A DNA stretch of 32,000 nucleotides, taken from Synechococcus sp. A15-24. Lineage in GTDB: Bacteria > Cyanobacteriota > Cyanobacteriia > PCC-6307 > Cyanobiaceae. Both the position numbers and the translations under genes were made by a program. The notes under the pieces are model-generated. The model searched no databases. It saw nothing but the letters and a program-made list of their open reading frames with translations, and was not told the DNA's origin. The stretch lies in assembly GCF_014280195.1 (NCBI RefSeq), contig NZ_CP047960.1, positions 930,001 through 962,000 on the forward strand, in the 5' to 3' direction. Of this stretch, positions 9,486-28,826 are shown in pieces. Every line of letters starts with the position of its first letter. Within the stretch, counting starts at the first letter, position 1.

Positions 9486-9528
9486 TCCCGCGGCTGATAG
9501 CGTCGCTCCTGCAACAGATCGCAGTTTC

Positions 9529-14000: not shown

Positions 14001-14576
14001 CCCAGTGCTCGACTCCTCGCACCCATCGGCCTGGGGGCGCTTGAGGAGCAACCGGACAAAGCCAAGGTCAGTGCCGTCACGATGATCACTGAGTTGCGTC
14101 AGGTCACCACCCGCAAGGGGGACCGAATGGCGATCCTTCAGCTGGAGGATCTCTCGGGCAGTTGCGAAGCCGTGGTGTTTCCCAAGAGTTATGCCCGACT
14201 GGCGGACCATCTGATGACAGAGGCGCGTCTTCTCGTCTGGGCAGGCGTCGATCGCCGGGATGATCGCGTGCAGTTGATCATTGATGACTGCCGGGTCATT
14301 GACGACCTCGCTGTTCTTCTCGTCGAACTCTCCTCTCAGCAGGCCAGCGACATCGCCATCCAACACAAGTTGAGGGAGTGCTTGACGCAATATCGACCTG
14401 AGCGTGAGGAACTTGGCGTCAAGGTGCCCGTTATTGCAGCGGTTCGCGAGGGTCAATCAGTTCGCTATGTCCGGCTGGGTTCTCAGTTCTGCGTCAAGGA
14501 CGCGGAAGCTGCGCTGCAAGCCCTGAAGACGCAGGCCTTCACGGCCCGTCATTCAGAGCCCATGGTGCTGGGTTGA
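11058..14576 (+). CDS. dnaE: DNA polymerase III alpha subunit DnaE (contiguous, no intein)
   Basis: 1172 aa. PHP domain [17 protein letters not shown]. Polymerase core [24 protein letters not shown] and [11 protein letters not shown]-terminal OB-fold region is present. Confidence 0.97.
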
Positions 14577-14993
14577 TCAGTCGGACTTGTTCTGTTGTTT
14601 CTGAGCTTTGATCGACTGGCGCATCCGTTGAACGTTGGGTTTGAGATTCTCCATACCAAGCAGCGAACCGGGCTGTTGATCCCAGCTGGAGCTCAGCACC
14701 CCAAAACTCAGCCCCACCAGCCCGAGTAGAAAAAAGAAGCCGGAACCCGCCAAAGTCAGCCCGGGCGCGATGTCAGCGATACCCTTGGTGATGAGCAGAT
14801 AGCTGCCAACAAAAACGCCCATGCCGGCAACAGTCGGCAAACCTGTGAACACCGCCACACGACGAGCCATCCTGTCAGCGACATAACGGGGAATGGCCTC
14901 CTGGCGGATGGCTGGGTCGTTTCCGTCGCCTTTGGAACCACCCTTTTTGGAACCCTTGGGCTCAAAGGGCAGTGACTGACGGTCCTCAGGCAT
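14577..14993 (-). CDS. PAM68-family photosystem II assembly factor (DUF3464, Sll0933-like)
   Basis: LPFEPKGSKKG...IPRYVADRMARRVAVFTGLPT...LVGLSFGVLSSSWD aligns by eye with Synechocystis Sll0933 (LPFEPK..., IPEVVSRRM, GLSYGIFSASWD). Two TM helices. Confidence 0.85.
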   Translation of the reverse strand: MPEDRQSLPFEPKGSKKGGSKGDGNDPAIRQEAIPRYVADRMARRVAVFTGLPTVAGMGVFVGSYLLITKGIADIAPGLTLAGSGFFFLLGLVGLSFGVLSSSWDQQPGSLLGMENLKPNVQRMRQSIKAQKQQNKSD

Positions 14994-15004
14994 GGTGCGC
15001 TCGA

Positions 15005-15274
15005 TCAGCCGCGGATGCCCAGTTTGGCGATGATCTCGGTGTACCGCTGCTCGCTCTTGTTACGCATGTAGCTCAGCAGGCGCTTACGCCGACCAATCAT
15101 CTTCAGCAACCCCTGGCGCGAGGAGAAGTCGTGGATGTTGTTCTGGAGGTGGCTGCTGAGACGGTTGATCCGCTCGCTCAGCATGGCGACCTGGACCTCC
15201 GCGGAACCGGTGTCGGTGCCGTGGGTTTGGTGAGTGTTGATCAGCTGTTGCTTCTCGGTGGTATCAAGCGACAT
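15005..15274 (-). CDS. rpsO: 30S ribosomal protein S15
   Basis: 89 aa. [22 protein letters not shown]...[23 protein letters not shown] is canonical S15. Confidence 0.97.
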
Positions 15275-15318
15275 GCGCGGGGTGCAGCCCTGTCAGTGCA
15301 AACAACCACCTTACCCGG

Positions 15319-15936
15319 TCATGGTCCCAAAAAAGACATAAGCTTGATGCAAGCCCTCAGCCAGGCGTCATCGTCATCACCGTCCTGGGGACCTCCGATG
15401 CTGCTCAGTCGTTGCAGCGCGCTTTGGATCTCATGGGTTTCGTAGCCGAGGGTCTCCAGTGTTGCGATGAGGTCAGGAGGAACAGAATCCACCTGATTGA
15501 GATCTGGATCGATGGAACCATCGCTGTCCACCAGCCGAGTGCGTAGCTCCAGAGCAAGACGTTCAGCGGTTCGTTTGCCCACTCCTTTTGCTCTGCAGAG
15601 GGTGTTGATGTCGGAGTGGACCAGAGCCCTTACAAGTTCGTTTGGCTTACAGGCATCGAGTAAGGACAATCCGGCCTGAGGCCCCACACCGCTCACTTGG
15701 ATCAGCTCCCTGAACAGGTCCCGTTCAGCCACTTGCAGAAATCCGAACAGTTGAAGGCTGTCAGCACTGACCACTTGATGAATCCAGAATTCATGGACTT
15801 TTCCAGTTGACAGAGTTTGCCAGTCCCGTTGAACGAGATAAACCTCGTAGCCGATGCCGCCACAACCAATCAGAACAAGGTTGCGTGACCTGCGTTGGTC
15901 CCGATGCTGGATCTCACCCTTCAGCCAGCCAATCAT
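15319..15936 (-). CDS. ruvA: Holliday junction branch-migration complex subunit RuvA
   Basis: MIGWLKGEI...GIGYEV...LFGF...ERDLFRELIQVSGVGPQAGLSLL...LCRAKGVGKRTAERL: OB domain, two HhH motifs and a C-terminal domain III. Confidence 0.93.
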   Translation of the reverse strand: MIGWLKGEIQHRDQRRSRNLVLIGCGGIGYEVYLVQRDWQTLSTGKVHEFWIHQVVSADSLQLFGFLQVAERDLFRELIQVSGVGPQAGLSLLDACKPNELVRALVHSDINTLCRAKGVGKRTAERLALELRTRLVDSDGSIDPDLNQVDSVPPDLIATLETLGYETHEIQSALQRLSSIGGPQDGDDDDAWLRACIKLMSFLGP

Positions 15937-16017
15937 TGCTTGAACTCAATCAATGGATCGTAAACGTGTCGAATCGGGTTTTAATTGAGCTTCAGGTTAA
16001 CAAGTGCTTGCTGAAGC

Positions 16018-16045
16018 TTGACGCTTGAAGGCCAAGACCTAAAAT
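16018..16045 (+). promoter_or_regulatory. Putative sigma70-type promoter for the island mrp operon
   Basis: TTGACG (16018-16023), a 16-nt spacer, then TAAAAT (16040-16045). A GGGAG Shine-Dalgarno-like element lies at 16046-16050, ahead of the ATG at 16063. The element is very close to the start codon, so the leader would be very short. Motif match only. Confidence 0.3.
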
Positions 16046-16062
16046 GGGAGAACGGCTCCACC

Positions 16063-16410
16063 ATGATGGAATTAACTCCTGAAAAAATAAGACTTATTCC
16101 GATGGTCGCCTTGATCATCATTGGCTGTTTCGGATTGTTGAATTCAAAATCGATTCTGCGCTCACTTTTTTCCCTCGACGTCATTGACACTGCGACAATC
16201 AGCATTTTTGTTTTGATCGCCGCCTCTGGCGGAGCGCAAACTCCGATTGTTGCAGAGAGTCGCTACAGCCAGTATTCGGATCCTTACCCACAAGCAATTA
16301 TTCTGACTGCCATTGTGATTGGTTTTGCAACGCAGGCTTTGCTCTGTGCGATTGCTTTGCGTTTGGGGCGTCAATCCCCAATGCTTCGCTATAGGAACCT
16401 AGAGAAGTGA
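16063..16410 (+). CDS. mrpC: Mrp/Mnh cation:proton antiporter subunit C (NuoK-like)
   Basis: Three TM helices. DPYPQAIILTAIVIGFATQALL matches the MnhC/NuoK motif (DPLPQALVLTAIVI.F). The likely start is ATG 16063 (MMELTPEK), preceded by GGGAG. Confidence 0.85.
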   Translation: MMELTPEKIRLIPMVALIIIGCFGLLNSKSILRSLFSLDVIDTATISIFVLIAASGGAQTPIVAESRYSQYSDPYPQAIILTAIVIGFATQALLCAIALRLGRQSPMLRYRNLEK

Positions 16411-17948
16411 TGGATTCTCAAATTCTTTTGCCGGCTTTGATTTTTTTGCCTGCAGCGCTGGGTTTTTTGGGATGTGTTCTTCCCAGAATTGTTTTCCCAG
16501 TAAGTGTGGCGATGCTTCTTGCGTATGCCTTCCTGTCTCAAAACCTGATCGGTTCCGGAGTCTCTTACGTCTTCACTTTGGTTGGTGAAGGAGGTATTCA
16601 ATTCTCTATTGATTTGTATACGTTTCCGCTCGTCTTCGGAAGCTCGATCACACTATTAATCTGCTTTGGTCTTTTTTATCGGCGATTCTCTCACTACTTT
16701 TATCAAGTCTGCTTGGTTCTTTTCACTGCATTGTTGATTGCCTTCAGCACAGTTGATCTCGTTAGCATGTTTATTGCTCTCGAATTGGTTGGGTTCGCTG
16801 CATTTTTATTGATTGCCGATCGTAGTGATAAAAAATCACTTTTCCATGCTTTTCAGTACTTGATAGGCGGAGGCCTTGCAATGCTGATCTACCTCATTGG
16901 TGTTGTGCAGGCTTTTACATACACAGGGTCTTTTTTGTTGACTGATCTTGTTCGAGCCCCTGAAACGGCTTTGTGTTTGATCGTTGCGGGGCTTCTCACA
17001 AAATCAGGAGTCTTTTTGTGTGGTTTGTGGGTCCCAAACATCTATTCACACGCTAACTGTCAATCCTCTGCTGTTCTGTCGGGTTGTGTGACCTGTGCCG
17101 GCATTGCTCCGATTGCACGCATGAGTCAGATTCTGATTCCGATCGGTGACTCAATGGTTGTTATCGGTGTCGTCAGTGCTGTTGTGGCGGCAATTTATGC
17201 GGTTTTTGAACGAGAGAGTGGTCGTGCTTTGGGGTGGAGCTCTGTTTCACAACTTGGAATTGCAATACTTTCACCCACATATGCTTGTGCATATGCCATG
17301 CAACATGGAATTTGCAAAGCACTTCTCTTCTCAACTCTTCACACCAAAGATCGCTCTAAACTGAGTGACGACAGCGTCAGCCACTTACACAATCAATTGG
17401 AGAATGTCCCATCTCTTCCAGTGGAGGAGTTCATCCGTGTGATTGTGTTTGTTGTCGCAAGTCTTTCGATCATGGGCTTTCCATATTTAAGCGGTTTCAT
17501 TACCAAGAATTGGGTTAAAACAGATTTACCCTATGAAGCTAAGATCATTTACACAACGGCTGCTTTATTAACATCAACCGTTTATGCTCGCTTGATTTTT
17601 GATAGAGTTTCTAATTTTATTGACCATCAACAGCCTCAGACTGTTTTGGCACTTAGACGAATTAGCCTTAACATAATTGATGTGCTGTCGACTCCCAGGC
17701 TATGGATCTTGTTGGTATCAATAATTTCTCTTATATACTTTTCTTTTGTTGATACTACTTTATATTCAACCCCATCAATTCGCTCAGCAATTGTTTCAGC
17801 CATTCTTGGTGGGATTCTGTTTATATCAGTGGTCGGAATTCAAGCCGACGAATTTGTAAAGCCTATCACTCGCACACTTGATCTCGTTGGTGCACCGTTC
17901 CTTGTTGCAGCCTTGCTACTTGCCAACCTTCTATACCTAAAAATCTGA
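16410..17948 (+). CDS. mrpD: Mrp/Mnh antiporter subunit D (NuoM/N-type proton-conducting antiporter-like subunit), divergent
   Basis: About 512 aa, polytopic. TM5-like Glu (FIALELVGFAAFLLI), TM7-like Lys (LLTKSGVFLCGLWVPNIY) and SQLG (WSSVSQLGIA) are typical of the NuoL/M/N/MrpA/D family. The usual APTPVSALLH stretch is degenerate (HANCQSSAVLSG). The ATG overlaps the mrpC stop (TGATG). Confidence 0.85.
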   Translation: MDSQILLPALIFLPAALGFLGCVLPRIVFPVSVAMLLAYAFLSQNLIGSGVSYVFTLVGEGGIQFSIDLYTFPLVFGSSITLLICFGLFYRRFSHYFYQVCLVLFTALLIAFSTVDLVSMFIALELVGFAAFLLIADRSDKKSLFHAFQYLIGGGLAMLIYLIGVVQAFTYTGSFLLTDLVRAPETALCLIVAGLLTKSGVFLCGLWVPNIYSHANCQSSAVLSGCVTCAGIAPIARMSQILIPIGDSMVVIGVVSAVVAAIYAVFERESGRALGWSSVSQLGIAILSPTYACAYAMQHGICKALLFSTLHTKDRSKLSDDSVSHLHNQLENVPSLPVEEFIRVIVFVVASLSIMGFPYLSGFITKNWVKTDLPYEAKIIYTTAALLTSTVYARLIFDRVSNFIDHQQPQTVLALRRISLNIIDVLSTPRLWILLVSIISLIYFSFVDTTLYSTPSIRSAIVSAILGGILFISVVGIQADEFVKPITRTLDLVGAPFLVAALLLANLLYLKI

Positions 17949-18385
17949 TGACCAATTTTATTCGACTTTCTATTCTGTTGCTTTTCCGACTTTTATGTTG
18001 GTGTCTAGTGACCTCAAGCTTTGAATCAAGTAATATCATTTTTGGCCTCGTTGTTTGCGTATTGATCCCATTTGGTGATTTTCGTAAACTTCAACTCAAG
18101 GCTTTAATTCCTGAGCTCTTGCTGACATTGCGTCTTCCATTTGATATGCTGAAAGAAAGTATTCAATTGATTCTGATTCAACATCCCATTGATCTATTTG
18201 TTCATGAGAAGGTTAGTTCTAGAACACGAAATGGTTCTAGATTTGCCGAGTTCTTGGATTTATTTCGAATCACTTTTACCCCAATGTCTCTTGTTTTACG
18301 CAGGATTGACATTGATCAGTGGAGAGTCCATCTAGTTGGTTCGTCACAATCGGATTATGATCAGAATGTGAGGGATACGTTATGA
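17948..18385 (+). CDS. mrpE: Mrp/Mnh antiporter subunit E (tentative)
   Basis: 145 aa with two N-terminal TM helices followed by a soluble domain, which is MnhE-like in size and topology. Its position between the D and F subunits fits, and the start overlaps the mrpD stop (TGATG). Sequence similarity is weak by eye. Confidence 0.6.
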   Translation: MTNFIRLSILLLFRLLCWCLVTSSFESSNIIFGLVVCVLIPFGDFRKLQLKALIPELLLTLRLPFDMLKESIQLILIQHPIDLFVHEKVSSRTRNGSRFAEFLDLFRITFTPMSLVLRRIDIDQWRVHLVGSSQSDYDQNVRDTL

Positions 18386-18660
18386 AAAATATTGATCTCG
18401 TACCCCTCGAGATTATTGAATACAGCATCATTTATATGATGCTGTTGATCAGTATGATTCCAGTTGTTGCTATTTCAAGGACGACTAATACTCCTGAAAG
18501 AATAGCTTATGCTTCAAGTTTTGGCAGTAAACTTGCTTTTATTGTTATTGCAGCAGGTATCTTCAGAGGTGATTGGATGATTGGTTGTATTGGTGCCTTC
18601 ATTCTTATTGTTGGTGATGCTGGCATGTTGATTCTTTCTCTTTTGGAGTTGAAAATCTAA
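18382..18660 (+). CDS. mrpF: Mrp/Mnh antiporter subunit F (tentative)
   Basis: 92 aa, three TM helices. TNTPERIAYASSFGSK resembles the MnhF GPT..DR..A.D motif. ATGA overlap with mrpE. Confidence 0.6.
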   Translation: MKNIDLVPLEIIEYSIIYMMLLISMIPVVAISRTTNTPERIAYASSFGSKLAFIVIAAGIFRGDWMIGCIGAFILIVGDAGMLILSLLELKI

Positions 18661-18927
18661 ATGTTAAATCTACTTTCATTCGCAATTCTTTTTATCGGCT
18701 TAATTTTTTGGCTATGGGGCACATTGCCTATTGTTAATCGAGAACATTCAATATTTTATAAGCTACATACTCTTACAGTTTCAGATAGTGTTGGTTCACT
18801 CCTAATTCTTCTGGCCTTGTTGATTCGTGCTCCGCAATATTGGCCTATTTTTTTAGTAACGGCAATCTCTTTATCACTTTGGAATACTGTTTTTAGTTAC
18901 ATTATTGGTAACATCTCTAATCGTTAA
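18661..18927 (+). CDS. mrpG: Mrp/Mnh antiporter subunit G
   Basis: 88 aa, three TM helices. FYKLHTLTVSDSVGSLLILLAL resembles the MnhG Y.RLHA..K..TLG motif. It starts immediately after the mrpF stop. Confidence 0.68.
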   Translation: MLNLLSFAILFIGLIFWLWGTLPIVNREHSIFYKLHTLTVSDSVGSLLILLALLIRAPQYWPIFLVTAISLSLWNTVFSYIIGNISNR

Positions 18928-19472
18928 TGATGATTGATTTTCTAAGTACAGCTCTGCTCCTTCCGTTCGAGCTTCTACTTCCCATACTTGGCATCCTTCT
19001 AATTCAATCACAATCTCCAATAAACAGTTTAATTTATAGATCATTTTTGGGTAGCATTGCTGCTTTGATTTATGCATTAATTGGTGCACCTGACGTTGCA
19101 CTCACCGAAGTTATGGTAGGGACTCTACTGTCCTCGCTGATTTATATTGTTACAATACGCTCTTGCTATACAATTGTAATTATCGTCGATACAAATAATC
19201 CTCCGCACAAAAATATAAAAGATTGCTTGAAGTTAATTTTTGACGAACTGCATTTAAAAATTGAATACCAGTCAGAGGTCTTCACAGATTCTTGCGCAGA
19301 TAATTTGGTTTTTCTTTCTTCAGCCAAGTCATCAGGTTCACCTCATGCATTGATTCACAATTCCACCTGTTTCTTTGAAGTCCAATCTTTACTCGATGAT
19401 GTCACTCTGACAGACTCTAGTAAATTTCTGGAAGATAAAATTACTCTTTGTTTATTACCTTCTCGACCATGA
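18927..19472 (+). CDS. DUF4040 membrane protein (MrpA C-terminal / MbhD-like subunit) with a non-membrane C-terminal extension of about 100 aa
   Basis: The N-terminal about 80 aa has three TM helices and the motif GAPDVALTEVMVGT, characteristic of the MnhB-N/DUF4040 segment of MrpA. Residues from about 85 to 181 are hydrophilic with no recognised domain. TAATG overlap with mrpG. Confidence 0.72.
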   Translation: MMIDFLSTALLLPFELLLPILGILLIQSQSPINSLIYRSFLGSIAALIYALIGAPDVALTEVMVGTLLSSLIYIVTIRSCYTIVIIVDTNNPPHKNIKDCLKLIFDELHLKIEYQSEVFTDSCADNLVFLSSAKSSGSPHALIHNSTCFFEVQSLLDDVTLTDSSKFLEDKITLCLLPSRP

Positions 19473-20182
19473 CTTCGAGCAAAACACCAAGACAATTTAC
19501 GCTTTCTTCAGAAGTAGCAAAGTCAACTGTCTATCTCGTAGCAATCACAGCCGTGATGCTGATGATCTTATTCACGCGAGACGATTCAGTTGCGCGAGAC
19601 ACAGAGCAGATTGTTGAATATCTTTCACAATATACGCAGATTCCAAACGCAGTGACTTCTGTCATTTTGGGTACAAGACTTTTTGATACGATTGGAGAAG
19701 TGACCGTATTTACAATTGCAGGTCTTGGAGTAAAAATCCTACTTCATGCAGAAGATTCAGAGGAAAAATTTGTTGGTATTAATGATCAAGTTATCCGAGT
19801 ACTGCTCGATTTCGCTGCATTACTAAGCTGCTTTCTAGCGATTGATCTTGCAGTCAAAGGTCATTTAACTCCTGGAGGTGGCTTTGCCTCAGGAGTTGCT
19901 GGTGCAACATCGATTACTATTTTGATGATTACTGGACGAATTCAAAAGGTTGAGGCGTTTTACTTTGGTAGTAATTCTCCTGCTCTTGAAAAAGTAGCCG
20001 TTATTGTTTTTATGCTGGTTGCACTCGCAACTTTTAGCTCTTTCTTACTTCCACAGTCTGTCTTCGCCACAGTTCCACCTACAATTTATATTCCACTATT
20101 GAATATCGTTGCAGCCCTCAAAGTTACTATCGGCTCATGGTCTATTCTTCGCCTATTTATTGTGAAGAGAGGTGTCCTTTAA
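19469..20182 (+). CDS. mrpB: Mrp/Mnh antiporter subunit B (MnhB domain)
   Basis: NAVTSVILGTRLFDTIGEVTVFTIAGLGVKILL matches the MnhB motif (N.VTAIL.DYRG.DTLGE..V). Further TM helices include GHLTPGGGFASGV. ATG 19469 overlaps the previous stop (ATGA). Confidence 0.8.
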   Translation: MTSSKTPRQFTLSSEVAKSTVYLVAITAVMLMILFTRDDSVARDTEQIVEYLSQYTQIPNAVTSVILGTRLFDTIGEVTVFTIAGLGVKILLHAEDSEEKFVGINDQVIRVLLDFAALLSCFLAIDLAVKGHLTPGGGFASGVAGATSITILMITGRIQKVEAFYFGSNSPALEKVAVIVFMLVALATFSSFLLPQSVFATVPPTIYIPLLNIVAALKVTIGSWSILRLFIVKRGVL

Positions 20183-20184
20183 CG

Positions 20185-20940
20185 ATGTCATATCGAGAGA
20201 CTGATGATTGGTACTTCGGTGACTATAGCGGTCGTCTTCCAGGCCGATCTTATTCACTGCTTTTGAATAGCGTCATTATTACCCTCTTTGCTCAAATTGC
20301 ATTGACGACTGAGCCAACATTTGACACTCCATCAGGTCAAATATTTTTACGCTTTACTCTCAATATTATTGAACTTTTCTTCATTAGTGACTATATCGGC
20401 AAACTTGCCAACTCATGGGCTCAAATGGATTACTCTCTAAAGGGCCTTGTTTATAGCGCACTTTCGAGATATGCCTTGGTCGATTTATGCGTAGTCTTGA
20501 TTCTGCTTACCGATCTGTTTTCTAATGACTCTTTTGTTGTCATTGGTGTTTATGTCTTCAAAGCGCTAATATCTATTTATTTTTCAAGTTTTAGGCTGGT
20601 TTTGATGAGAGTTAGGTTCATTATTTTTGATTCCCCTGCATACACCTTCTTCCCGCTTGTTTTATTGTCGATTGTGACATATGTGATGGCATTTTGCATT
20701 TATCTTCTTGAAAGATCTAATGACTCTGCGCATTTTGGATCCATTGTACGAGCTTTTTGGTTTTCTATTGTCACGATGACCACGATTGGGTATGGTGATG
20801 TTACACCTACAACATCTCTTGGGAAAGTCCTTGCGATCATGTTTGGTATTGTTGGCATTGTTTGCGTCGCGTTGTTAACAGCTAACATTCTTGAGGCTAA
20901 TGCTAAGTTTAACGAGATTGAGTCAAGTGGAAAAATCTAG
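20185..20940 (+). CDS. Six-TM potassium channel (Kv-like ion-transport protein) with a TIGYGD selectivity filter
   Basis: Pore helix and filter FWFSIVTMTTIGYGDVTP. Five upstream hydrophobic segments are present. The S4-like segment FRLVLMRVRFIIF carries only three Arg. No RCK or CNBD domain. The ATG at 20185 lies 2 nt after the mrpB stop. Confidence 0.88.
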   Translation: MSYRETDDWYFGDYSGRLPGRSYSLLLNSVIITLFAQIALTTEPTFDTPSGQIFLRFTLNIIELFFISDYIGKLANSWAQMDYSLKGLVYSALSRYALVDLCVVLILLTDLFSNDSFVVIGVYVFKALISIYFSSFRLVLMRVRFIIFDSPAYTFFPLVLLSIVTYVMAFCIYLLERSNDSAHFGSIVRAFWFSIVTMTTIGYGDVTPTTSLGKVLAIMFGIVGIVCVALLTANILEANAKFNEIESSGKI

Positions 20941-21700
20941 TCCTTCCATTGCGCTTAATAATCAATATGGTGTTTCTATGCATTCACTCAATCATATATT
21001 AGATGTTGGAACTCCGTTTGTAATTTTTGAGGCCTATGTGTCTTCCTATCATAAATTTATCGACTTTATAAAATTTGGTTGGGGAAGTGCTTTGATAGAT
21101 CCTGAGTTTGAGTCGAAGAAGGAAATCTGTGAACGATTTGGGATTAAGCCTCTACTTGGTGGCACTTTTTTTGAGTATATGATTCATCATCATGGCTTTG
21201 CGGGCTTTGTGAAAAAAATTGAACAATATGGACTGCAATATGTTGAACTTAGTCGAGGCACAATTGATATTGATGACTCGTTGTATGCGTCCTATATTAA
21301 GCAACTTTCTTCAGACTATTACGTTATGAGTGAAGTGGGGAGGAAATCCTCAGACCCCTCCCAGGCCCTTGCTCCATCACAATGGCTTGCCCATTGTGAG
21401 CTCTCATCAGATGCAGGGGCTTCCTTAGTGGTACTTGAATCACGTGAGTCGGGTCGCTCGGGATATGTTTCTACTGGTGGCGATGTCAACGCGGTCATGC
21501 TTGATTCCATAAGCAATTCACTTCCCATCAACTCTCTACTGTTTGAGGCACCAATCAAGTCTGTTCAGACCTTTTTGATTAAACGTTATGGTGCATCGGT
21601 CAACCTGGGTAATCTTTCACTGGTTGATCTCTTAGCAGTTCAGTCACTACGTCTTGGGTTGCGTTCAGACACGCTGCTTGAATCCAAAGCAATATTTTAA
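20900..21700 (+). CDS. comA: (2R)-phospho-3-sulfolactate synthase ComA-family protein
   Basis: Block-by-block match to the remembered Methanocaldococcus ComA: IDFIKFGWGSA (DFVKFGWGTS), LLGGTFFEY (PGGTLFEY), VELSRGTIDI (VEISDGS), SEVGRK (EVGKK), DAGASLVVLESRESG (DAGADYVIIEGRESG), LFEAPIKSVQ...YGASVNLGN (IFEAPQKSQQ...FGSSVNLAN) and LRLGLRSDT (LRRGLRGDT). The start is uncertain (ATG 20900, GTG 20930 or ATG 20978). The first two overlap the end of the channel gene. Confidence 0.85.
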   Translation: MLSLTRLSQVEKSSPSIALNNQYGVSMHSLNHILDVGTPFVIFEAYVSSYHKFIDFIKFGWGSALIDPEFESKKEICERFGIKPLLGGTFFEYMIHHHGFAGFVKKIEQYGLQYVELSRGTIDIDDSLYASYIKQLSSDYYVMSEVGRKSSDPSQALAPSQWLAHCELSSDAGASLVVLESRESGRSGYVSTGGDVNAVMLDSISNSLPINSLLFEAPIKSVQTFLIKRYGASVNLGNLSLVDLLAVQSLRLGLRSDTLLESKAIF

Positions 21701-21729
21701 TATTTTTCTTTTTGACGTCAGCTAGCAGA

Positions 21730-21764
21730 TTGTCAATAGGCTTATTCTCGCCTATCATTATAAT
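21730..21764 (+). promoter_or_regulatory. Putative internal promoter of the island, upstream of the binding-protein/carrier pair
   Basis: This is the only sizeable intergenic gap in the island (21701-21785). It contains TTGTCA (21730-21735), a 17-nt spacer, TATCAT (21753-21758), and an adjacent TATAAT (21759-21764). The perfect palindrome TGACGTCA sits at 21713-21720. Motif match only. Confidence 0.3.
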
Positions 21765-21785
21765 GACCATTTCCTAGCTCTATTG

Positions 21786-22667
21786 ATGTCGCCTAAATGG
21801 CCAAAAGCATTCGTAAGGCATCTAATTGCTTTCACCTTGACCGTAGCATTATTGCAGGCATTGCCGGCTTTGGCTGCTGAAAATAGTTTCATAAATTCGA
21901 TTCAACAACGTGGATATTTAAAAGTCGGATTGCCACCATACAATACGCCTCCCGCATACTATATCGATAAAAAAACAGAAAAACTGCAAGGATATGATGT
22001 AGAGCTGGCCCGCGAACTTGCTGACAAGCTTGGCGTTGATCTTCAATTTGATAGAGAATCAAAAAGCTTTAATTCACTTGTAGAGCGTGTTGGTGCTGAC
22101 GATTTTGATCTAGCGATCGGCAAGCTGGGTCTCACTTATAATCGATTATTTGACGCATTTCCTGTCCAGTATTTGAGCTTCCGTCATGCTCTCCTCGCAG
22201 ATCGAAAGTTTATTTCTAGTCTAGGAGTCGATCCGGAAGATGATGGTTTTGGCGATGCGTTGAAAACTTCAAATATCCGCATTGGTTCTATTGAAAACTC
22301 AACTTGGGAAACTGAGGCGAAAGTTAACTTCCCAAACTGTAAATTTGTTGGCTACAAAAACTGGGAGGATGCTCAGAAGGCTTTGTTGGCTGTTGACCCC
22401 AAAACCAAAAAATCAGCTATCGATGCAATTTATCGTGATGCCACTGAGATCAAGCCAATTGTTTATAAAGATCCTGATTTATCGCTTAAATACGTCCCTG
22501 TTCTTTTTGACGATATTATTGATCGAAAATCTATTTATCTTTCCGAGAAGGGCTACATAGGATTTTCGGACTTTCTTGATGTCTTTATTCGTCGAGAGTG
22601 GGGTGAGGTCAAGTCTGACGAACGCATCCTCAATGAATATCAAGCTTATTACCAGCCAGTATCTTGA
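21786..22667 (+). CDS. Periplasmic solute-binding protein, family 3 (polar amino acid / organic acid type) with a signal peptide
   Basis: The signal peptide is MSPKWPKAFVRHLIAFTLTVALLQALPALA-AE. The SBP_bac_3 pattern is YLKVGLPPYNTPPAYYIDKKTEKLQGYDVELARELADKLGV...FDLAIGKLGLTYNRLFD, including the T..R carboxylate-binding position. Confidence 0.85.
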   Translation: MSPKWPKAFVRHLIAFTLTVALLQALPALAAENSFINSIQQRGYLKVGLPPYNTPPAYYIDKKTEKLQGYDVELARELADKLGVDLQFDRESKSFNSLVERVGADDFDLAIGKLGLTYNRLFDAFPVQYLSFRHALLADRKFISSLGVDPEDDGFGDALKTSNIRIGSIENSTWETEAKVNFPNCKFVGYKNWEDAQKALLAVDPKTKKSAIDAIYRDATEIKPIVYKDPDLSLKYVPVLFDDIIDRKSIYLSEKGYIGFSDFLDVFIRREWGEVKSDERILNEYQAYYQPVS

Positions 22668-22672
22668 TCATT

Positions 22673-24061
22673 ATGCAGACATCTCAGGATTCCATGTCAT
22701 TTCTTGATCGGGTGTTCTCGATTCTCCCGGCACTTCGAAAACCTCGCAATTTCTTCCTTTATATACTTCCGTTTTCAATTGTTTTCGGAAGAGTTATACC
22801 AACACAGCTTGCTTCTGGTTTAAATGACGTTGGATTGGCAATGGTTCAACTCATTGCTTTCCCGGCGATTCCGCTTGTGTTGTCTGCCGTCATGATTTCA
22901 ATTGCTAATATTTTTAATGAAGACAATCGGTCGGCTCAGCGCCGGTTGCGCTTCTCCAGTCGTTTTGTGATTTCCTTGACGCTGACGATTCTCCTCGCAT
23001 CTTTGCTGGCACTTCTTCTTTCTATCTATCAGGCGCCTGGAGTTTTGTCACCGGATGGAAAACTATCAATTGGTCGTTTCATGCTTGATACGACTGATAT
23101 TCGCGTAGGGGGAGATGTCGCAGCTTCATCAATCTCTAGCGACTTCTGGATCGCAAAAATTGTTCCCAGCAATATTCTGGCTGATGCATCTGCTGGTCAG
23201 ACACTGAGAGTAATAAGTGGATCGGTTTTGGCTGGTTTGGCTATGTCCAGGTTGAATCCTGGTCTAACCCAACCACTGCTTTCGCTTCTTCGCAGTGTTA
23301 ACACTACGTCAGTGCAGGTTTTAAGCATTGTGCTAAATCTTGCTCCTCTTGTTCTTATCTGTCTGATCTCTGGCGCTGTTTCTACTATCAACGCTGAGAT
23401 TGTTGTTGCGCTTTTAAACTTTACAATCTGTGTTTTCCTGACGGCAATTGCCTCTCTTGGTATCTCAAGGCTTGTTTTTCGTCGTTTCACATCTACGCGT
23501 GAGCGAGCGACGACTGATGCAAATCCTGTGGACTCTGTCTTTCTTCTCAGTCTTTCCACTGGCAGCAGTATGACGGCATATCCACTGATGTTTGAGACCC
23601 TCAAGGGGATGGGGCGTGATGAATCCGAAGTTGAAGCATCAGCTTCTCTCAGCCTGTTAATCGCTCGTTTGGGTAATGTTACTTACAACGTCATCGCGAT
23701 TGTCTTTGCTCTCAATCTTTACGATGTGGGTCTTACACCTGTGCGTTTTTTGGAGGTCATTTTCCTTGGCGCTTTTACAGGGATTTCGGCTGCTGGGTTG
23801 ACTGGTGTTGCCACTGTTCCGACGATTGCTGTCGCGCTCTCTTATTTCCAAGTACCGATCCCGCCTGTTTTAGTTCTTCTCTTAGCGATTGATCCGATTC
23901 TTACGTTGCCGCGTGCTGCTACAACCGGTGTTTTGGCGATCGCGATTTCAGTGATTTCCTCAGCCAAGTCCAGCAACTCAGAGCTGTCTGATGTCTCATC
24001 CAGTTCCTCCCTTGGTCTGCTCAGCCAGCAGGGTGATGTTGCCTCACTAGAAGGTGGTTGA
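22673..24061 (+). CDS. Divergent dicarboxylate/amino acid:cation symporter (DAACS, GltP/DctA/EAAT-like) family carrier
   Basis: About 460 aa, polytopic. By-eye matches to DAACS landmarks: FPAIPLVLSAVMISI (PLVF.S...GI, TM3), HP1-like STGSSMTAYPLMFE (SSSA.TLP), HP2-like GISAAGLTGVATVP (S.G.AGIPG.G) and TM8-like LAIDPILTLPRAATTG (.D...D..RT..NV.GD). The NMDG motif is not conserved (ARLGNV). The start is ATG 22673 or 22694. The TTG at 22664 overlaps the binding-protein stop. Confidence 0.72.
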   Translation: MQTSQDSMSFLDRVFSILPALRKPRNFFLYILPFSIVFGRVIPTQLASGLNDVGLAMVQLIAFPAIPLVLSAVMISIANIFNEDNRSAQRRLRFSSRFVISLTLTILLASLLALLLSIYQAPGVLSPDGKLSIGRFMLDTTDIRVGGDVAASSISSDFWIAKIVPSNILADASAGQTLRVISGSVLAGLAMSRLNPGLTQPLLSLLRSVNTTSVQVLSIVLNLAPLVLICLISGAVSTINAEIVVALLNFTICVFLTAIASLGISRLVFRRFTSTRERATTDANPVDSVFLLSLSTGSSMTAYPLMFETLKGMGRDESEVEASASLSLLIARLGNVTYNVIAIVFALNLYDVGLTPVRFLEVIFLGAFTGISAAGLTGVATVPTIAVALSYFQVPIPPVLVLLLAIDPILTLPRAATTGVLAIAISVISSAKSSNSELSDVSSSSSLGLLSQQGDVASLEGG

Positions 24062-24513
24062 TGCAACCGATTCAGTCCCTATCTCGGATGATACGCCAGC
24101 TCTTGACTGTTGTGTCAGGGCTCTTGATCGTCGTAACCCTGTCGTCCTGCACCCTTCGCAATGAGCCGCCCCGCGCCATTGTCATTGAGGCCTTGCAGTC
24201 ACAGATCCAGACGACCCAGGTCTCCATTGCACAAAGTCTTGACTTGCAACCTGTGGCCTCTGCTCCTGCCGTCAGCCGGGTTCGCGTCGACCATCAAGAG
24301 GTCCTCAAGGTGGAGGGCGAGCGTTTCGTGCATTTAGAAGGCAGTTTTGACTGGCAGTTACCTCGGGACAGCGTCCGTGTGGACAGTGCCTTTGATCTCT
24401 ACCTCCAGCGCGGGTCGCACGGAGAAGGGTGGAGTCTTGCCAGGCCTGCAGTAAGCAATGGTGGCGAAGCCCAGCGTTGGCTGCTCTACCCCCTCGGCTT
24501 GCCCACGAGCTGA
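24061..24513 (+). CDS. Lipoprotein, unknown function (core-genome composition)
   Basis: The signal peptide carries the lipobox LLIVVTLSS-C. GC here is back to flank level. The ATG at 24061 shares its A with the TGA of the island carrier gene. Confidence 0.7.
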   Translation: MQPIQSLSRMIRQLLTVVSGLLIVVTLSSCTLRNEPPRAIVIEALQSQIQTTQVSIAQSLDLQPVASAPAVSRVRVDHQEVLKVEGERFVHLEGSFDWQLPRDSVRVDSAFDLYLQRGSHGEGWSLARPAVSNGGEAQRWLLYPLGLPTS

Positions 24514-24518
24514 TCTGA

Positions 24519-25406
24519 TCAGGCCTGACGGCTGGAGAGGCTGATAAAGGATGCACCCAGCACAAGCGCTGCACCACCACATGTGAATGCCGTAATTGAT
24601 TCGTTGAACCAGATCCACCCCCAGCTAGCAGCGAACAACACCTGGACGTAATTCAGCGACGTCGCCCTCGCCGCTGGCAGACAGCTCAGCCCCTTGGTCA
24701 CCCAGATCTGGCCGAGTTGAGTCAGCACACCGACTCCGAGCAACCAGATCCAATCCACCGCTGAAGGCCAGACCCCGATGTGCAGAACCATCGGCAGCGT
24801 GAGGGGAATCGAGACCACAGGGAAATAGAGAATGATCACCAAGGGGTGTTCCTTGGCCGATAAGCGTCGGACGCATACATATGCCAGAGCTGTAAATAAA
24901 GCTCCGCCCAGGGCTGTCAGCCCTGGGCGTAACGCCAGCCCGTTCTGGCCTGCGCCCAGCCATTCCGGTTGGATCACAAACACCACCCCGAGCAAGCCCA
25001 GCAGCACGGCCAAGCCAATGCGACGGCGCAGCCGTTCCCCCAGCAATAGCCAGGCCGCCGCTGCAGTGAATGTTGGGTAGGTGTACTGCAGGACCGTGGC
25101 TGATGCCAGCGGTAATGCAGTGATCGCCTCGAAGAAGCACAGCAGGGCAACGCTTCCACAGATGCCGCGTAGCAGCAGCAGGCGTCGGTTGTTCCCCAGG
25201 GGTTTGATCCCTCCAACCGCCATGGCTGTTCCCGTCAGGGCAATGCTCACAACGGATCGAACCAGCACGATCTCGCTGACGGGAATTCGTCCTCCCAGTT
25301 GTTTGACGCACACCGTCATCAGGCTGAAGGCAAGAGAGCTCAGAACCAGGGCCCTCGCTCCCTGCATCTCCTGGCGCTGCCACCAGGTCGACGTCTGTTC
25401 ATCCAT
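24519..25406 (-). CDS. DMT-superfamily (EamA-like) transporter
   Basis: Ten predicted TM helices arranged as two EamA-like repeats (ALVLSSLAFSLMTVCVKQL ...; ...LTQLGQIWVTKGL). The chosen start is MDEQTS (ATG at 25406), because the 25472 start would overlap dnaG. Confidence 0.85.
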   Translation of the reverse strand: MDEQTSTWWQRQEMQGARALVLSSLAFSLMTVCVKQLGGRIPVSEIVLVRSVVSIALTGTAMAVGGIKPLGNNRRLLLLRGICGSVALLCFFEAITALPLASATVLQYTYPTFTAAAAWLLLGERLRRRIGLAVLLGLLGVVFVIQPEWLGAGQNGLALRPGLTALGGALFTALAYVCVRRLSAKEHPLVIILYFPVVSIPLTLPMVLHIGVWPSAVDWIWLLGVGVLTQLGQIWVTKGLSCLPAARATSLNYVQVLFAASWGWIWFNESITAFTCGGAALVLGASFISLSSRQA

Positions 25407-25464
25407 GGTTGCGCTGGTGCTCCTGATGGGTGGACGCCGACCTGCGACTTCGCAGAATGGGTCC

Positions 25465-27516
25465 ATGGTCAATGCCCGCCTTCATCCCCGCACCATCGAC
25501 GCCGTCAAGGAGCGGGCGGACATCGTCGATGTGGTGGGCGACCACGTCGTTCTGAAAAAGAAAGGACGGGAGTTTGTCGGCATCTGTCCGTTTCACGACG
25601 ACAGCAAGCCGTCGATGACGGTGTCTCCCGCCAAGCAGTTCTACTACTGCTTCTCCTGTGGTGCGGGCGGAAACTCCATCAAGTTCCTGATGGAGTTTCA
25701 GCGGCAGAGTTTCAGCGATGTAGTGCTGGATCTGGCCCGCCGTTATCAGGTGCCGGTCGAGACCGTTGATGGTCCTCAGCAGGAGCGGTTGAAGCAGCAA
25801 CTCTCCCGGCGGGAGAAGCTTCAGCGGGCCCTGGCCTTGGCTGCCGGTTGGTTTCGCAGCCAGTTGCGCAGCCCGACGGGTGAGCAGGCCCTGGCGTACC
25901 TCACGGAAGTTCGTGGCCTGACACTCGCCACCCAGGAGACATTCGGTCTCGGTTACGCCCCGGACCAATGGGACGGCCTTTTAAAGCATCTGCAGCAGGT
26001 GGAAGGCCTTTCGGCTGAGCTGTTGGAGGCAGCTGGACTGGTGGTCCCCCGCAAGGGTGGCCATGGCTTCTACGACCGTTTTCGCCGTCGGGTGATGGTT
26101 CCGATTCACGACCGTCAGGGACGGGTGATTGGCTTCGGTGGCCGGAGCTTGGATGGCAGCGAGCCCAAATACCTGAACTCTCCAGAGACGGAGGTGTTCG
26201 AGAAAGGCAAGCATCTGTTCGGCCTCGACAAGGCCACCAACACCATCCGCAAGCAGGACCGTGCCGTGGTGGTGGAGGGTTACTTCGATGTCATCGCCCT
26301 GCACGCGGCAGGGATCACCAATGCGGTGGCGTCCCTGGGCACCGCCCTCAGCAGCCAGCAGATCACCCAGCTCTGTCGCGTCACCGACGGCAAGCGGATC
26401 GTTCTCAACTTTGACGCGGACGGCGCTGGGGTTCGTGCGGCTAACCGCGCCATCGGTGAAGTGGAGCAGCTCGCCTTGCAGGGGCAACTGGAGCTGCGGG
26501 TGCTGCATCTGCCTTCCGGCAAAGATCCAGATGAGTTCCTCAAGGACCATGGCGCCGGGGATTACCGGGCTCTGCTCGATCAGGCGCCCCTCTGGCTGGA
26601 CTGGCAGATCGAACAGGCCCTCGCTGATCGAGACCTTGCCAAGGCGGATCAGTTCCAGCAGGCGGTCTCGGCCTTGGTGGCTCTGCTCGGAAAGTTGCCT
26701 CAGTCGGCGGTGCGCACCCATTACCTGCAACGGGTCGCTGAACGGCTCAGCGGCGGTCAAGGTCGATTGGCACTGCAGCTGGAGGACGACCTGCGCCAGC
26801 AGGTGAAGGGCCAGCGTTGGCATGGTCGATCCAGCCGGCATGACCAGCCGGGCGACACCAGTCAGCGGGAGCGCTGTGAGGCTGATCTGCTGCGCCTTTA
26901 TCTGCATGCCCCCCGCCACAGGGGCACGATCCGCCAGGAGTTGCGCCAGCGGGAACTGGAGGACTTTGCGATCCCCCATCACCGTCTGCTCTGGGCCTCT
27001 CTGACGGAACTTGAGGAGACCAACCTCGGCGTGGGCCGCCTGGAATCGATCAGCCGTGGTGAAGATGATGGTGACGGCCTAGATGGGCTGGACCTGCCCC
27101 GTCTGCTGACGGACCAGCTGCTGCTGGAGAACAGCCCTCTGTTGTCACGGCTGACGCCATTGCTCGAACCGGGTGAACTGGAGCGTGTCGCCCTGGCCGA
27201 ACCGCTCGAGCAGTTGCGTGGGCTCGCGGCATTGCTGGAGCGTCAGAAGAGCTTCAAGCGCTGCCGCCACCTGCTGGAAGCCTGGGGTGGGCAGCGTCTG
27301 CAGACCTTGGAAGCCTGCATTTCCGTGTTGGTGCAAGACAACCAGGCGGATCAGCAGGGTGTGGACATGGAAGGCCGCATCGAGCAACTGTTCGAGGAGC
27401 TCAACCGCGATGCGTTGCACTACCAGGAGCTGTATTACAGCGAGAGGAAGCACATTCAGCATCTCGATCAGCAACGCCGCGGCGGCTTCCAGACCGTTGA
27501 TGTCCTGTCCGCCTGA
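25465..27516 (+). CDS. dnaG: DNA primase DnaG
   Basis: CHC2 zinc finger [40 protein letters not shown] region [16 protein letters not shown]...LNFDADGAG. The true start is ATG 25465 ([24 protein letters not shown]). The 25081 start in the track is an out-of-gene extension antisense to the DMT gene. Confidence 0.95.
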
Positions 27517-27529
27517 ACCCCGCGGGCGG

Positions 27530-28567
27530 ATGATGGATTCCCGTGCTGTCTTGGTGATGGGCCTGTTCGAGCGCTATCTCTCCCTGTGGATCGCTCTGGC
27601 GATTGCGGTGGGTGTGCTTCTGGGGGGCGTTTTTCCTGATCTGGCGAGCTGGATCGCCTCATTGGAGGTGGCCCGCATCAACGTTCCGATCGCCGTTCTG
27701 ATCTGGGGAATGATCGTTCCGATGATGCTGGCCGTGGATTTCTCCGCCATCGGTGGCATCCGCCAGCAACCGCGGGGTCTGCTGGTCACTGTGGCCGTGA
27801 ACTGGTTGATCAAGCCCCTCACGATGACGGCCCTGGCCTTGTTGTTCATCCGTGGGGTGTTCGCGGCCTGGATCCCGGAAGCGATGGGTCAGGAGTATGT
27901 GGCCGGGATGATTCTGCTGGGGGTGGCCCCTTGCACCGCGATGGTGTTCGTGTGGAGTCGCCTCAGTGATGGGGATCCCAACTACACCCTGGTGCAGGTG
28001 GCGGTGAACGACCTGATCATGGTGTTTGCCTTTGCCCCGATTGCAGCGTTATTGCTTGGGGTGAGTGACGTGCTGGTGCCGTGGGACACGATGATCACGG
28101 CGGTGGGGCTGTTCGTGGTGGTGCCGTTGGCGACGGGATGGTTGATGCAGGTGTTTTTGAAGTCCCCTGGTCGGATTGCGCGGTTGGAGGCCCAGCTCAA
28201 GCCCCTAGCGATCACGGCTCTGATCGCCACGGTGCTGCTGCTGTTCATGGTGCAGGCCCAGGCGATCCTGTCCAATCCCCTGGCAATCGTGCTGATCGCG
28301 ATCCCGCTCATCCTGCAGACCTATCTGATTTTCTGGCTCACGGCGCAGTGGATGCGCCTCTGGGGGCAACCACGCACGGTCGCGGCCCCTGGCGCGATGA
28401 TCGGCGCCTCCAATTTCTTTGAGCTAGCGGTGGCTGTGGCCATCAGCCTGTTCGGCTTGAATTCCGGCGCTGCCCTCGCCACTGTGGTGGGAGTGCTGGT
28501 GGAAGTGCCGGTGATGCTGTCGCTGGTGGCGATCGCCAACCGCAACCAACGTCTGTTCCCCGCTTGA
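27530..28567 (+). CDS. acr3: Arsenite efflux carrier, ACR3 family
   Basis: [18 protein letters not shown] at the N-terminus. [32 protein letters not shown] (conserved Cys region) and [13 protein letters not shown] (conserved Glu) are ACR3 hallmarks. ATG 27530 lies 13 nt after the dnaG stop. Confidence 0.92.
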
Positions 28568-28568
28568 G

Positions 28569-28826
28569 ATGTCTGAATTCTTCGAAGCGATCTGGCACGG
28601 TGAGGGCATCGGCGACGGTGCTGATCTGGAGGAAGCTCTCCAGGCCTATGCCGTGGTGAAACCGGAGGACGGCGACTGGGTGGAGGCTTGTGCTGCTGAC
28701 GGGGCTGATCCGGTGGTCGAGCGCTTCCCCTCCTTCGACGCCTATCTGGATAACGCCGATCCGCTCGAGACCATCGCTGTGTCGCCGCAGATGATTGCCG
28801 AGGCGATTGCGCTGTTGCCGGTTTGA
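28569..28826 (+). CDS. Small acidic hypothetical protein
   Basis: 85-aa ORF that starts 1 nt after the acr3 stop. Very acidic (many D/E). No family recognised. Its composition is consistent with neighbouring genes. Confidence 0.5.
   Translation: MSEFFEAIWHGEGIGDGADLEEALQAYAVVKPEDGDWVEACAADGADPVVERFPSFDAYLDNADPLETIAVSPQMIAEAIALLPV

Follow-up and report, generated by a model that had tools for sequence, protein, structure and literature searches.

A recurrent genomic island of marine picocyanobacteria encodes a putative minimal Mrp-type antiporter and a K+ channel beside a binding protein, a divergent DAACS carrier and an optional ComA-family enzyme

Within the chromosome of Synechococcus sp. 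A15-24, a block of 11 tightly packed and co-directional genes brings together a putative cation/proton antiporter of the Mrp type, a K+ channel, an enzyme of the ComA family, a periplasmic binding protein and a divergent carrier of the DAACS family. The window analysed here is a stretch of 32,000 nucleotides (nt; contig NZ_CP047960.1, positions 930,001 to 962,000, forward strand), in which the block occupies positions 16063-24061. This block is a true island, compositionally foreign to the chromosome around it, and the cassette that it carries was found in about 60 further loci. It is very probable that the cassette is a functionally coherent unit. Its overall scheme may be that of a two-module membrane-transport cassette of the marine picocyanobacterial flexible gene pool, combining uptake of an acid with cation balance and carrying ComA as an option; this is a reading from sequence that we hold with a little less than even confidence. 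An original prediction for this stretch of DNA had named four components, namely the Mrp antiporter, the K+ channel, ComA, and the binding protein with its DAACS carrier. Pfam and NCBIfam place all four at their predicted positions, as follows.

15939..24100, + strand, the whole island, delimited by alignment against the empty site in Synechococcus sp. RS9915
16063..16410, + strand, mrpC, NuoK-like small subunit (PF00420, E 1.4e-17; NF005620, 138 bits, cut-off 91)
16407..17948, + strand, mrpD, the sole antiporter-like large subunit of the cassette (PF00361, E 1.7e-25)
17948..18385, + strand, mrpE-like subunit, a weak assignment (PF01899, E 5e-4, below gathering score)
18382..18660, + strand, 92-amino-acid (aa) membrane protein that occupies the mrpF position, the sole basis of its assignment
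18661..18927, + strand, mrpG (PF03334, E 4.5e-14)
18927..19472, + strand, MbhD-like protein, corresponding to the C-terminal portion of MrpA and lacking an antiporter-like N-terminal domain (PF13244, E 1.2e-14)
19469..20182, + strand, mrpB, with an MbhE-like N-terminal part (PF04039, E 4.7e-13; PF20501 weak; NF009218, 267 bits, cut-off 184)
20185..20940, + strand, K+ channel, Kv-like, with six transmembrane helices (TM) and without a cytoplasmic regulatory domain (PF07885, E 4e-18; PF00520)
20927 (GTG start) or 20978 (ATG start)..21700, + strand, ComA-family enzyme of the phosphosulfolactate synthase family (PF02679, E 9.5e-58)
21786..22667, + strand, SBP_bac_3 binding protein, type II, secreted, with a signal peptide (PF00497, E 8.7e-11, N-lobe only)
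22673..24061, + strand, divergent DAACS/SDF carrier (PF00375, E 1.4e-35)

The island stands out clearly from its surroundings, which are a segment of cyanobacterial chromosome with high G + C content (59-66%). A block of about 8.2 kb with 33-47% G + C lies between ruvA and a hypothetical gene, and the interval 16063-24061 runs exactly from the ATG of mrpC to the stop codon of the carrier gene. The G + C content at third codon positions (GC3) is 0.25-0.48 in the island genes, lowest in the centre, and 0.57-0.86 in the flanking genes. The complete genome of the close relative RS9915 (CP047934.1) provides the empty site: its flanks align with positions 6191-15938 and 24101-32000 of the window at 94.6% and 96.4% nucleotide identity, respectively, and between them it has a spacer of 298 bp (L075:9761-10058) where the window has 8162 bp. 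This spacer has 45% G + C and contains an annotated 48-aa open reading frame (ORF), and no remnants of the island were found in it. The block therefore combines presence and absence among close relatives with atypical composition, the two features by which genomic islands are recognized.

No signature of a mobile element marks the ends of the island, with no tRNA gene nearby and no flanking repeat. None of the island genes has an integrase or transposase domain in Pfam, no integrase-like ORF is present among those predicted, and a scan of viral contigs with ComA, directed at a phage origin, gave no match. A search of the window with Rfam for regulatory RNA returned only the tRNA-Pro at 783-856. 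The genes to the left of the island are, in order, those for a Crp-family regulator, tRNA-Pro, msrA, an ATP-binding cassette (ABC) exporter, trpD, carA, a STAS protein, spoU, gatA, dnaE, PAM68/DUF3464, rpsO and ruvA; those to the right are the hypothetical gene, EamA, dnaG, SBF, umuC and umuD. The right junction falls inside the annotated start region of the hypothetical gene, of which the first 58 nt (about 19 codons) differ from RS9915. The SBF/BASS gene (27173-28567; Na+/bile-acid symporter family) follows dnaG in both the window and RS9915, and two related loci (L007 and L076) have short unannotated ORFs in its place.

Two features of composition are recorded as observations in their own right. 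GC3 forms a gradient, from about 0.40-0.48 at the ends of the island (mrpC, mrpD and the carrier gene) to 0.25-0.30 in its centre (mrpG, mbhD and mrpB). The island also keeps 35-45% G + C in all Synechococcus backgrounds encountered, even though its alleles diverge by 60-85% at the protein level; a low-GC island pool persists inside high-GC genomes and has not drifted toward the composition of the host.

The genes within the island are closely spaced. From mrpC through the K+ channel gene, neighbours overlap by 1-4 nt, abut, or lie 2 nt apart. The ComA gene overlaps the channel gene by 14 nt if the GTG start is used, or starts 37 nt after it with the ATG start. A gap of 85 nt precedes the binding-protein gene, whose stop codon is separated by no more than 5 nt from the start of the carrier gene. 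A scan for promoters and terminators gave counts at chance level, and the two highest-ranking promoter-like sites (16018-16045 and 21730-21758) are no more than suggestive.

The cassette recurs elsewhere as one unit. When species-representative genomes were scanned with ComA, five Synechococcus single-cell genomes were identified with the same 11 genes, in the same order and at the same ruvA/dnaG site, as far as their contigs extend. Full contigs of the single-cell genomes show an island of 35-45% G + C in a background of 53-60%. Look-ups added L007-L009 and L076-L079, and the same 11-gene order is present in L007, L008 and L076-L079. A scan of metagenomes with an alignment of MrpB gave 52 loci, of which 31 span the stretch from mrpB to the binding-protein gene. 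Several protein clusters of the cassette, drawn at 90% identity, have about 100 or more member sequences each. Across the genes compared, the unit is conserved over 41-99% protein identity; it occurs in two genera and occupies at least two different genomic sites. The original prediction of one coherent cassette is well supported by this shared gene order, found at the ruvA/dnaG site in single-cell genomes and also in many metagenome contigs, and the contrary outcome, that the genes never co-occur elsewhere, clearly fails.

Contigs of low G + C content (28-38%), which we take to be Prochlorococcus, also carry the cassette. In those with 28-31% G + C, Prochlorococcus-like by their composition and a PSII/Pcb-type neighbour, it is located at a different genomic site, and its proteins are more distant from those of the window (MrpB 59-60% identical, MrpE 42-44%, the MrpF-position protein 41% and ComA 47-49%). 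In a neighbour-joining tree of the carriers, the low-GC sequences form a clade that is sister to a Synechococcus-type clade. Low-GC contigs that have ComA also have a gene of the VOC/glyoxalase family adjoining it, between the ComA and binding-protein genes, which is absent from the version in the window. In these versions the genes for ComA, VOC, binding protein and carrier overlap or are 7 nt apart, and the ComA gene of the window is packed against the K+ channel gene instead. A gene for a MIP aquaporin/glycerol facilitator is located just upstream of the cassette in contigs with 28-30% G + C that have ComA and VOC (L006:3970-4605; L012:110-745); the aquaporin gene of L012 is separated from the cassette by genes for PFK and a cNMP-binding protein.

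Comparison of these loci indicates which parts belong most firmly together. The binding protein is present in all 31 spanning metagenome loci, and the carrier follows it wherever the contig continues; in the loci examined, the binding-protein gene is always directly upstream of the carrier gene. The same arrangement extends beyond the picocyanobacterial cassette, to the three nearest full-length outgroup carriers (30-33% identity, on contigs with 43-60% G + C), all three of which have a homologous binding-protein gene (33-43% identity) directly upstream. The binding protein and carrier are thus an old, conserved pair. A distant contig with 45% G + C (L069) carries consecutive genes for ComA, VOC, binding protein and carrier, with no mrp or channel gene abutting them in the 464 nt upstream, where there are stop codons in all three forward frames. 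The original prediction had offered, as an alternative, that the right-hand genes form a sulfonate module, and this contig gives that idea direct support. In the picture that emerges, these four genes constitute a separate module, joined to mrp and the K+ channel in marine picocyanobacteria. The Synechococcus-type version has lost VOC, and repeated losses have removed ComA, either alone or together with VOC. Immediately after its carrier gene, L069 has a gene for a HAMP-SpoIIE (PP2C-type) signalling phosphatase (L069:3862-5907), which hints at a sensing role for the transporter pair there.

In some closely related backgrounds, alleles of the island diverge far more than the flanks do. In two loci (L018 and L020) the proteins of the right flank are mostly 90-98% identical to those of the window (73% for the hypothetical gene of L018), and the island proteins are 67-87% identical. 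Two others are mosaic: in tracts corresponding to 17948-20182 of the window (L021:2720-4951 and L022:3683-5914), the proteins from mrpE to mrpB are 69-85% identical, and outside them mrpC and mrpD are 98-99% identical to the window and the genes from the channel onward 95-99%. Divergent and mosaic island alleles within similar flanks indicate allele exchange by homologous recombination, and exchange of the island appears to run through recombination in the flanks.

The left-hand module resembles known antiporters of the Mrp (CPA3) family. Matches to PF04039, PF00420 and PF03334, all above cut-offs, place MrpB, MrpC and MrpG in this family. Among solved structures, the closest chain to MrpD is MbhH of the membrane-bound hydrogenase (Mbh) of Pyrococcus (6CFW_H, E 6e-13), followed by MrpD (7QRU_D), and the glutamate of TM5 and the lysines of TM7 and TM12 are conserved in the alignment. 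The MbhD-like protein (181 aa) gives weak matches to positions ~610-700 of the NCBIfam models of MrpA. Mrp/CPA3 antiporters are characterized by two large subunits; the window encodes one protein with PF00361, and this is likewise the case in all related loci. The mrpE-like gene has a conserved position in all loci, with the same weak MNHE mark in its homologues, and all loci covering this stretch have the mrpF-position protein between mrpE and mrpG. Confirmation of MrpE and MrpF with Pfam on nine orthologues failed.

Comparison with characterized systems emphasizes how reduced this module is. It shares with the Mrp antiporters of Anabaena, Aphanothece and Synechococcus WH7803 (mrpCD..GAB) the C, D, G and B subunits, a protein like the C-terminal part of MrpA, and the charged residues. 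It differs in having a single antiporter-like subunit, with no NuoL-like N-terminal MrpA domain and no second MrpD, and in that its E subunit is weak and F is unrecognizable. Its gene order starts with C and D, which we take to be the order in cyanobacterial mrp clusters. Likeness to archaeal Mbh (MbhA-H, 6CFW) is seen in the solved chain nearest to MrpD and in matches to the Pfam MbhD and MbhE domains. Presumably, the subunit make-up of the Na+/H+ membrane module of Mbh equals that of the cassette. Unlike Mbh, the cassette has no hydrogenase or other redox module, and its predicted membrane complex is free-standing and belongs to a cyanobacterium.

Among marine picocyanobacteria, an mrp cluster is reported to be absent from WH8102 and MED4 (PMC6337551). 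One is present in WH7803 and not in a euryhaline strain, and a link to salinity has been doubted (PMC7771541). The WH7803 genes form a co-expressed group that is cold-induced, lower by day and higher at night (PMC7393227). The cassette differs from the WH7803 cluster in forming one block with the K+ channel, ComA, and the binding-protein/carrier pair. Identity between the two was considered and rejected because the neighbours in WH7803 are TerB-like and hypothetical proteins, and not the K+ channel, binding protein and carrier.

The K+ channel next to the mrp genes has a selectivity filter, TMTTIGYGD, that aligns with the TMTTVGYGD of Kv1.3 and Shaker, and its pore also aligns with those of KvAP and KcsA. 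The region of the voltage sensor is recognized by PF00520 over residues 48-260 (E 3e-8), with Kv4.2 aligned from residue 64, and the S4-like stretch, FRLVLMRVRF, contains only about three arginines.

The right-hand module is less conventional. The carrier matches PF00375 with 123.5 bits (cut-off 27.9) over profile positions 20-383 of 387, and lies outside both the GltP and DctA subfamilies (63 bits against a cut-off of 638, and 60 bits against 513). Its residues were read by aligning it with the structure of an archaeal aspartate transporter (9BGZ) and across 15 members of the family. The serine-rich motif of helical hairpin 1 (HP1), the AG.xG motif of hairpin 2 (HP2) and the Asp...Arg pattern of TM8 are all kept. 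The NMDGT motif is replaced by ARLGN, with the family pattern (A/S)(R/Q/S)(L/I/M)GN. The Na+-ligand positions of TM8 are lost, one being Thr or a gap and the other Leu or Val; we take them to be N401 and D405 of GltPh. The substrate arginine of TM8, which we take as R397 of GltPh, is invariant in 15 of 15 members and, by eye, is also present in the outgroups P0288, P0289 and P0291. The position of the aspartate that contacts the amino group is an invariant Thr; presumably it corresponds to D394 of GltPh, which binds the substrate amino group, and to a position where we take DctA to have Ser. The carrier thus has the fold family, HP1 and HP2 motifs and substrate arginine of DctA and GltP/GltPh, and differs from them in the absence of NMDGT and of the TM8 Na+ ligands and in the Thr that replaces the aspartate. 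These residues point to an acidic, probably non-amino substrate and to non-canonical ion coupling. The subfamily is very narrow, with 13 clusters at E <= 1e-30 in an exhaustive search of 1.84 billion representative proteins.

A nearly invariant motif, KLSIGRFMLDxTDI, is found at residues ~130-150 of the Synechococcus-type and low-GC carriers, at the equivalent of the extracytoplasmic TM3-TM4 loop of Glt transporters. The binding protein may dock there.

Matches of the binding protein to amino-acid-binding proteins are distant, and it has a 65%-identical relative in A15-62. The motifs GKL..R and DA..RD, including an extra arginine, are invariant in all members and in the outgroups. It also keeps the arginine of the ...T..R motif, the residue with which related amino-acid-binding proteins hold the carboxylate of the ligand. 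Proteins of the SBP_bac_3 family usually belong to ABC-type uptake systems for polar amino acids; here the neighbour is always a DAACS carrier, and Pfam found no ABC permease or ATPase (BPD_transp, ABC_tran) in the island or in related cassettes. A periplasmic binding protein encoded beside a secondary carrier for organic acids, with no ABC ATPase, is reminiscent of the TRAP and TTT systems. Membrane subunits of TRAP systems are of the elevator type, and their binding proteins hold the ligand carboxylate by an arginine. The resemblance is functional only, since the carrier is PF00375 and not DctQM or TctAB, and the binding protein PF00497 and not DctP, TAXI or TctC. No pairing of a DAACS carrier with a transport binding protein was found in the literature searched, and this conserved pairing is the most novel element of the cassette.

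ComA is the component that gives the clearest chemical clue. It matches PF02679 with 196 bits (cut-off 25.2) over profile positions 12-243 of 243, B. subtilis YitD (1U83) with E 7e-46, and M. jannaschii ComA (1QWG) with E 6e-39. The motifs EVGKK/EVGRK, RESG, FEAP and LRxGLRxDT (LRLGLRSDT) are conserved in comparison with 1QWG, 24FO and 1U83. The conserved lysine is, we assume, the proposed general acid, K137 in M. jannaschii numbering. The score against the archaeal equivalog TIGR03849 is 172 bits, below its cut-off of 280. Among proteins clustered at 90% identity, the cluster with the ComA of Synechococcus sp. A15-24 has a representative that shares 97% identity with this protein. Enzymes of this family combine sulfite with phosphoenolpyruvate (PEP) to form phosphosulfolactate, and the known direction is synthetic. 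Conserved motifs link the enzyme to the ComA/ComB pathway (coenzyme M in methanogens; YitD/YitC in B. subtilis); in contrast to that pathway, the island has no ComB, ComC, ComD or ComE, and its ComA scores below the archaeal cut-off. No gene for ComB is present anywhere in the window. Six marker genes chosen for phylogeny across Cyanobacteria include a 'probable 2-phosphosulfolactate phosphatase' (PMC3985644), so the second step to sulfolactate plausibly comes from the core genome.

The VOC proteins that accompany ComA in other versions share invariant His and Glu residues of the kind that bind metal in this superfamily. To our knowledge, pairing of ComA with a VOC-family metalloenzyme has not been described for the ComA/ComB pathway. 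Five high-GC loci carry a second, conserved type of ComA-VOC operon in which the ComA and VOC genes overlap; its order is histidine phosphatase, ComA, VOC, AMP-binding (adenylating) enzyme and membrane Acyl_transf_3 protein, and it also includes GDSL lipases (L015:758-5395, L071:3392-8096, L072:541-5245, L073:6001-10604 and L074:2979-7582); one of the assemblies is labelled Acidimicrobiales by NCBI. The adjacent histidine phosphatase suggests that ComA runs in the synthetic direction there, and the operon appears to encode synthesis of a sulfolactate-type acid and its attachment to a component of the cell envelope. We know of no description of this ComA-VOC-phosphatase operon type.

For the island as a whole, no description of the combination was found in the literature searched, in agreement with the original prediction, which knew of none. 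It does not appear in the main text of a survey of gene clusters (PMC10119275), nor was it found in the supplements searched.

From the observed gene content, conservation, modularity, island status and residue patterns, we infer a substrate, a coupling ion, a contact between binding protein and carrier, and a physiological role. The first module would be a minimal Mrp-type cation/proton antiporter (MrpD with the C, E-like, F-position, G, MbhD-like and MbhE/B subunits), followed by the Kv-like K+ channel. In the second, the periplasmic SBP_bac_3 protein would deliver a small acidic substrate to the divergent, elevator-type DAACS carrier, as a form of binding-protein-dependent secondary uptake that may work like TRAP and TTT systems with a carrier of a different family. 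The carrier would import or recapture a dianionic C3 or C4 acid, for which our best guess is sulfolactate or a relative (cysteate or a malate-like acid). To balance the charge and cations moved during uptake, the channel would admit K+ and Mrp would exchange Na+ and H+. ComA would convert PEP and sulfite to phosphosulfolactate, from which the near-universal ComB-like phosphatase of cyanobacteria could yield sulfolactate, so that strains with ComA would also make the sulfonate and strains without it would only take it up. The acid may serve as a counter-anion for K+ that is free of nitrogen and phosphorus, or the system may be one of scavenging. Sulfolactate or a near relative is the leading substrate candidate because of the link to ComA; that sulfolactate specifically is the substrate is doubtful. 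In its fullest form the proposal would make the binding protein and DAACS carrier a third, unrecognised class of binding-protein-dependent secondary transporter, built on an elevator carrier without its former Na+ sites. Together with a one-pump Mrp and a K+ channel it would concentrate or retrieve sulfolactate or a closely related C3 sulfonate, which ComA strains would produce from PEP and sulfite as a counter-anion free of nitrogen and phosphorus. Synechococcus and Prochlorococcus would then take part in the marine sulfonate economy, on the producing and on the consuming side. We regard that full proposal as speculative and rather improbable as a whole.

Several results weigh against the two-module scheme or parts of it. 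ComA is present in 18 of the 31 spanning loci and absent from the other 13. Eleven loci have the K+ channel without ComA (among them most of the low-GC contigs and the basal Synechococcus-type locus L044), and two (L035 and L036) have neither, so that neither gene is obligatory for the core of mrp, binding protein and carrier; no significant match to remnants of ComA, VOC or channel genes was found in the gaps of loci that lack them. This outcome divides what had been predicted as a cassette for ions and an anionic solute: the recurrent unit stands, and the anionic solute is not supported as stated, because ComA, its only basis, is optional. The assignments of two Mrp subunits are also fragile: a profile search of solved structures gave no match for the mrpE-like protein, and the mrpF-position protein, placed by position, had no match in Pfam, NCBIfam or the same structure search. 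We know of no demonstration that an Mrp with a single large subunit works as a free-standing antiporter. With promoter and terminator counts at chance level, operon structure is read from gene spacing alone. No report of sulfolactate in Synechococcus was found in the literature searched. The binding protein keeps the aspartate that holds the alpha-amino group in amino-acid binders, which would fit cysteate or aspartate better than sulfolactate and conflicts with the Thr of the carrier; an AlphaFold model of it (predicted local distance difference test, pLDDT, 54; predicted template modelling score, pTM, 0.33) was unusable for analysis of the pocket. Finally, the carrier lacks canonical Na+ sites, and recycling of co-transported Na+ via Mrp therefore has no residue-level support. 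Such recycling, as an established reason for the link between a Na+-coupled carrier and Mrp, was rejected on these grounds; non-canonical sites are possible.

The locus L044 (L044:566-9975; 49% G + C, Synechococcus-like) also differs in arrangement. Its hypothetical gene is located between ruvA and mrpC, and not after the carrier gene, and ComA is absent, as would result from a different insertion point or a local rearrangement.

Different models can be proposed to explain why these genes travel together. One is a cassette for osmoadaptation, in which Mrp would expel Na+, the channel would admit K+, ComA would make an anionic sulfonate, and the binding protein and carrier would recapture solute that leaks out, in the way that TeaABC recaptures ectoine in Halomonas. 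All the parts that such a scheme needs are present and conserved together, the motifs of ComA are intact, and an aquaporin gene stands beside the low-GC version. It would also suit organisms that replace phosphorus and nitrogen compounds with sulfur and carbon ones, as picocyanobacteria do with sulfoquinovosyl diacylglycerol (SQDG) lipids and glucosylglycerate. The near-universal ComB-like phosphatase of cyanobacteria (PMC3985644) would complete the synthesis. Set against this are the 13 loci in which the rest of the cassette persists without ComA, and the missing VOC partner of the window, seen with ComA in the low-GC versions, L069 and the second operon type. Bearers of the island are open-ocean lineages living at constant salinity, and the island contains no osmoregulatory sensor or regulator. 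The close relative RS9915 does without the island, WH8102 has no mrp cluster (PMC6337551), and the presence of mrp has been argued not to track salinity range in Synechococcus (PMC7771541). Judged from the genes, osmoadaptation is therefore an unlikely explanation of the whole.

Another model is a scavenging or catabolic module that would import an external organic acid or sulfonate given off by other plankton (for example sulfolactate, cysteate or C4-dicarboxylates), with ComA, with or without VOC, processing it, for example by release of sulfite or by action on a related substrate, and Mrp and the channel only keeping up the gradients. The earlier alternative of a role in the marine sulfonate currency pointed in this direction, as do the invariance of the binding protein and carrier while ComA is dispensable, the free-standing module of L069, and the knowledge of transporter families that binding proteins mark import and not export. 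This model has to contend with the synthetic direction of the known ComA reaction; its reversal would require a sulfolactate kinase, which the cassette lacks. The phosphatase beside ComA-VOC in the second operon type likewise argues for synthesis, and the carrier is without recognisable Na+ sites. We consider this model improbable, with a small share of our confidence. The coupling of parts might also be more apparent than real: the binding protein could be a co-sensor, like DctB of B. subtilis, which acts with DctA and the kinase DctS, or adjacency could reflect shared regulation or horizontal transfer of mechanistically independent passengers. The HAMP-SpoIIE gene after the carrier gene in L069, the separable modules with independent loss of ComA and the K+ channel, and a WH7803 mrp cluster without K+ channel, binding-protein or carrier neighbours would all fit this. 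The picocyanobacterial cassette, however, has no kinase or regulator gene, and the adjacency of binding protein and carrier, whose genes overlap or abut, holds over 30-98% identity and across genomes with about 28-60% G + C, which exceeds what is expected of hitch-hiking. The link of mrp, binding protein and carrier also survives at different genomic sites and in two genera, and we judge this last explanation very unlikely.

No phototrophs in the ocean are more abundant than Synechococcus and Prochlorococcus, whose flexible islands are considered to carry adaptations to niches. The island described here is widespread in metagenomes and is exchanged between lineages. If the two-module scheme is correct, a binding protein that serves a DAACS carrier would represent a new architecture for high-affinity secondary transport. 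A natural Mrp with a single pump and no redox module would bear on how the antiporter modules of Mrp and complex I work. The scheme would also provide a cyanobacterial route to C3 sulfonates, with producers and consumers distinguished at the level of strains.

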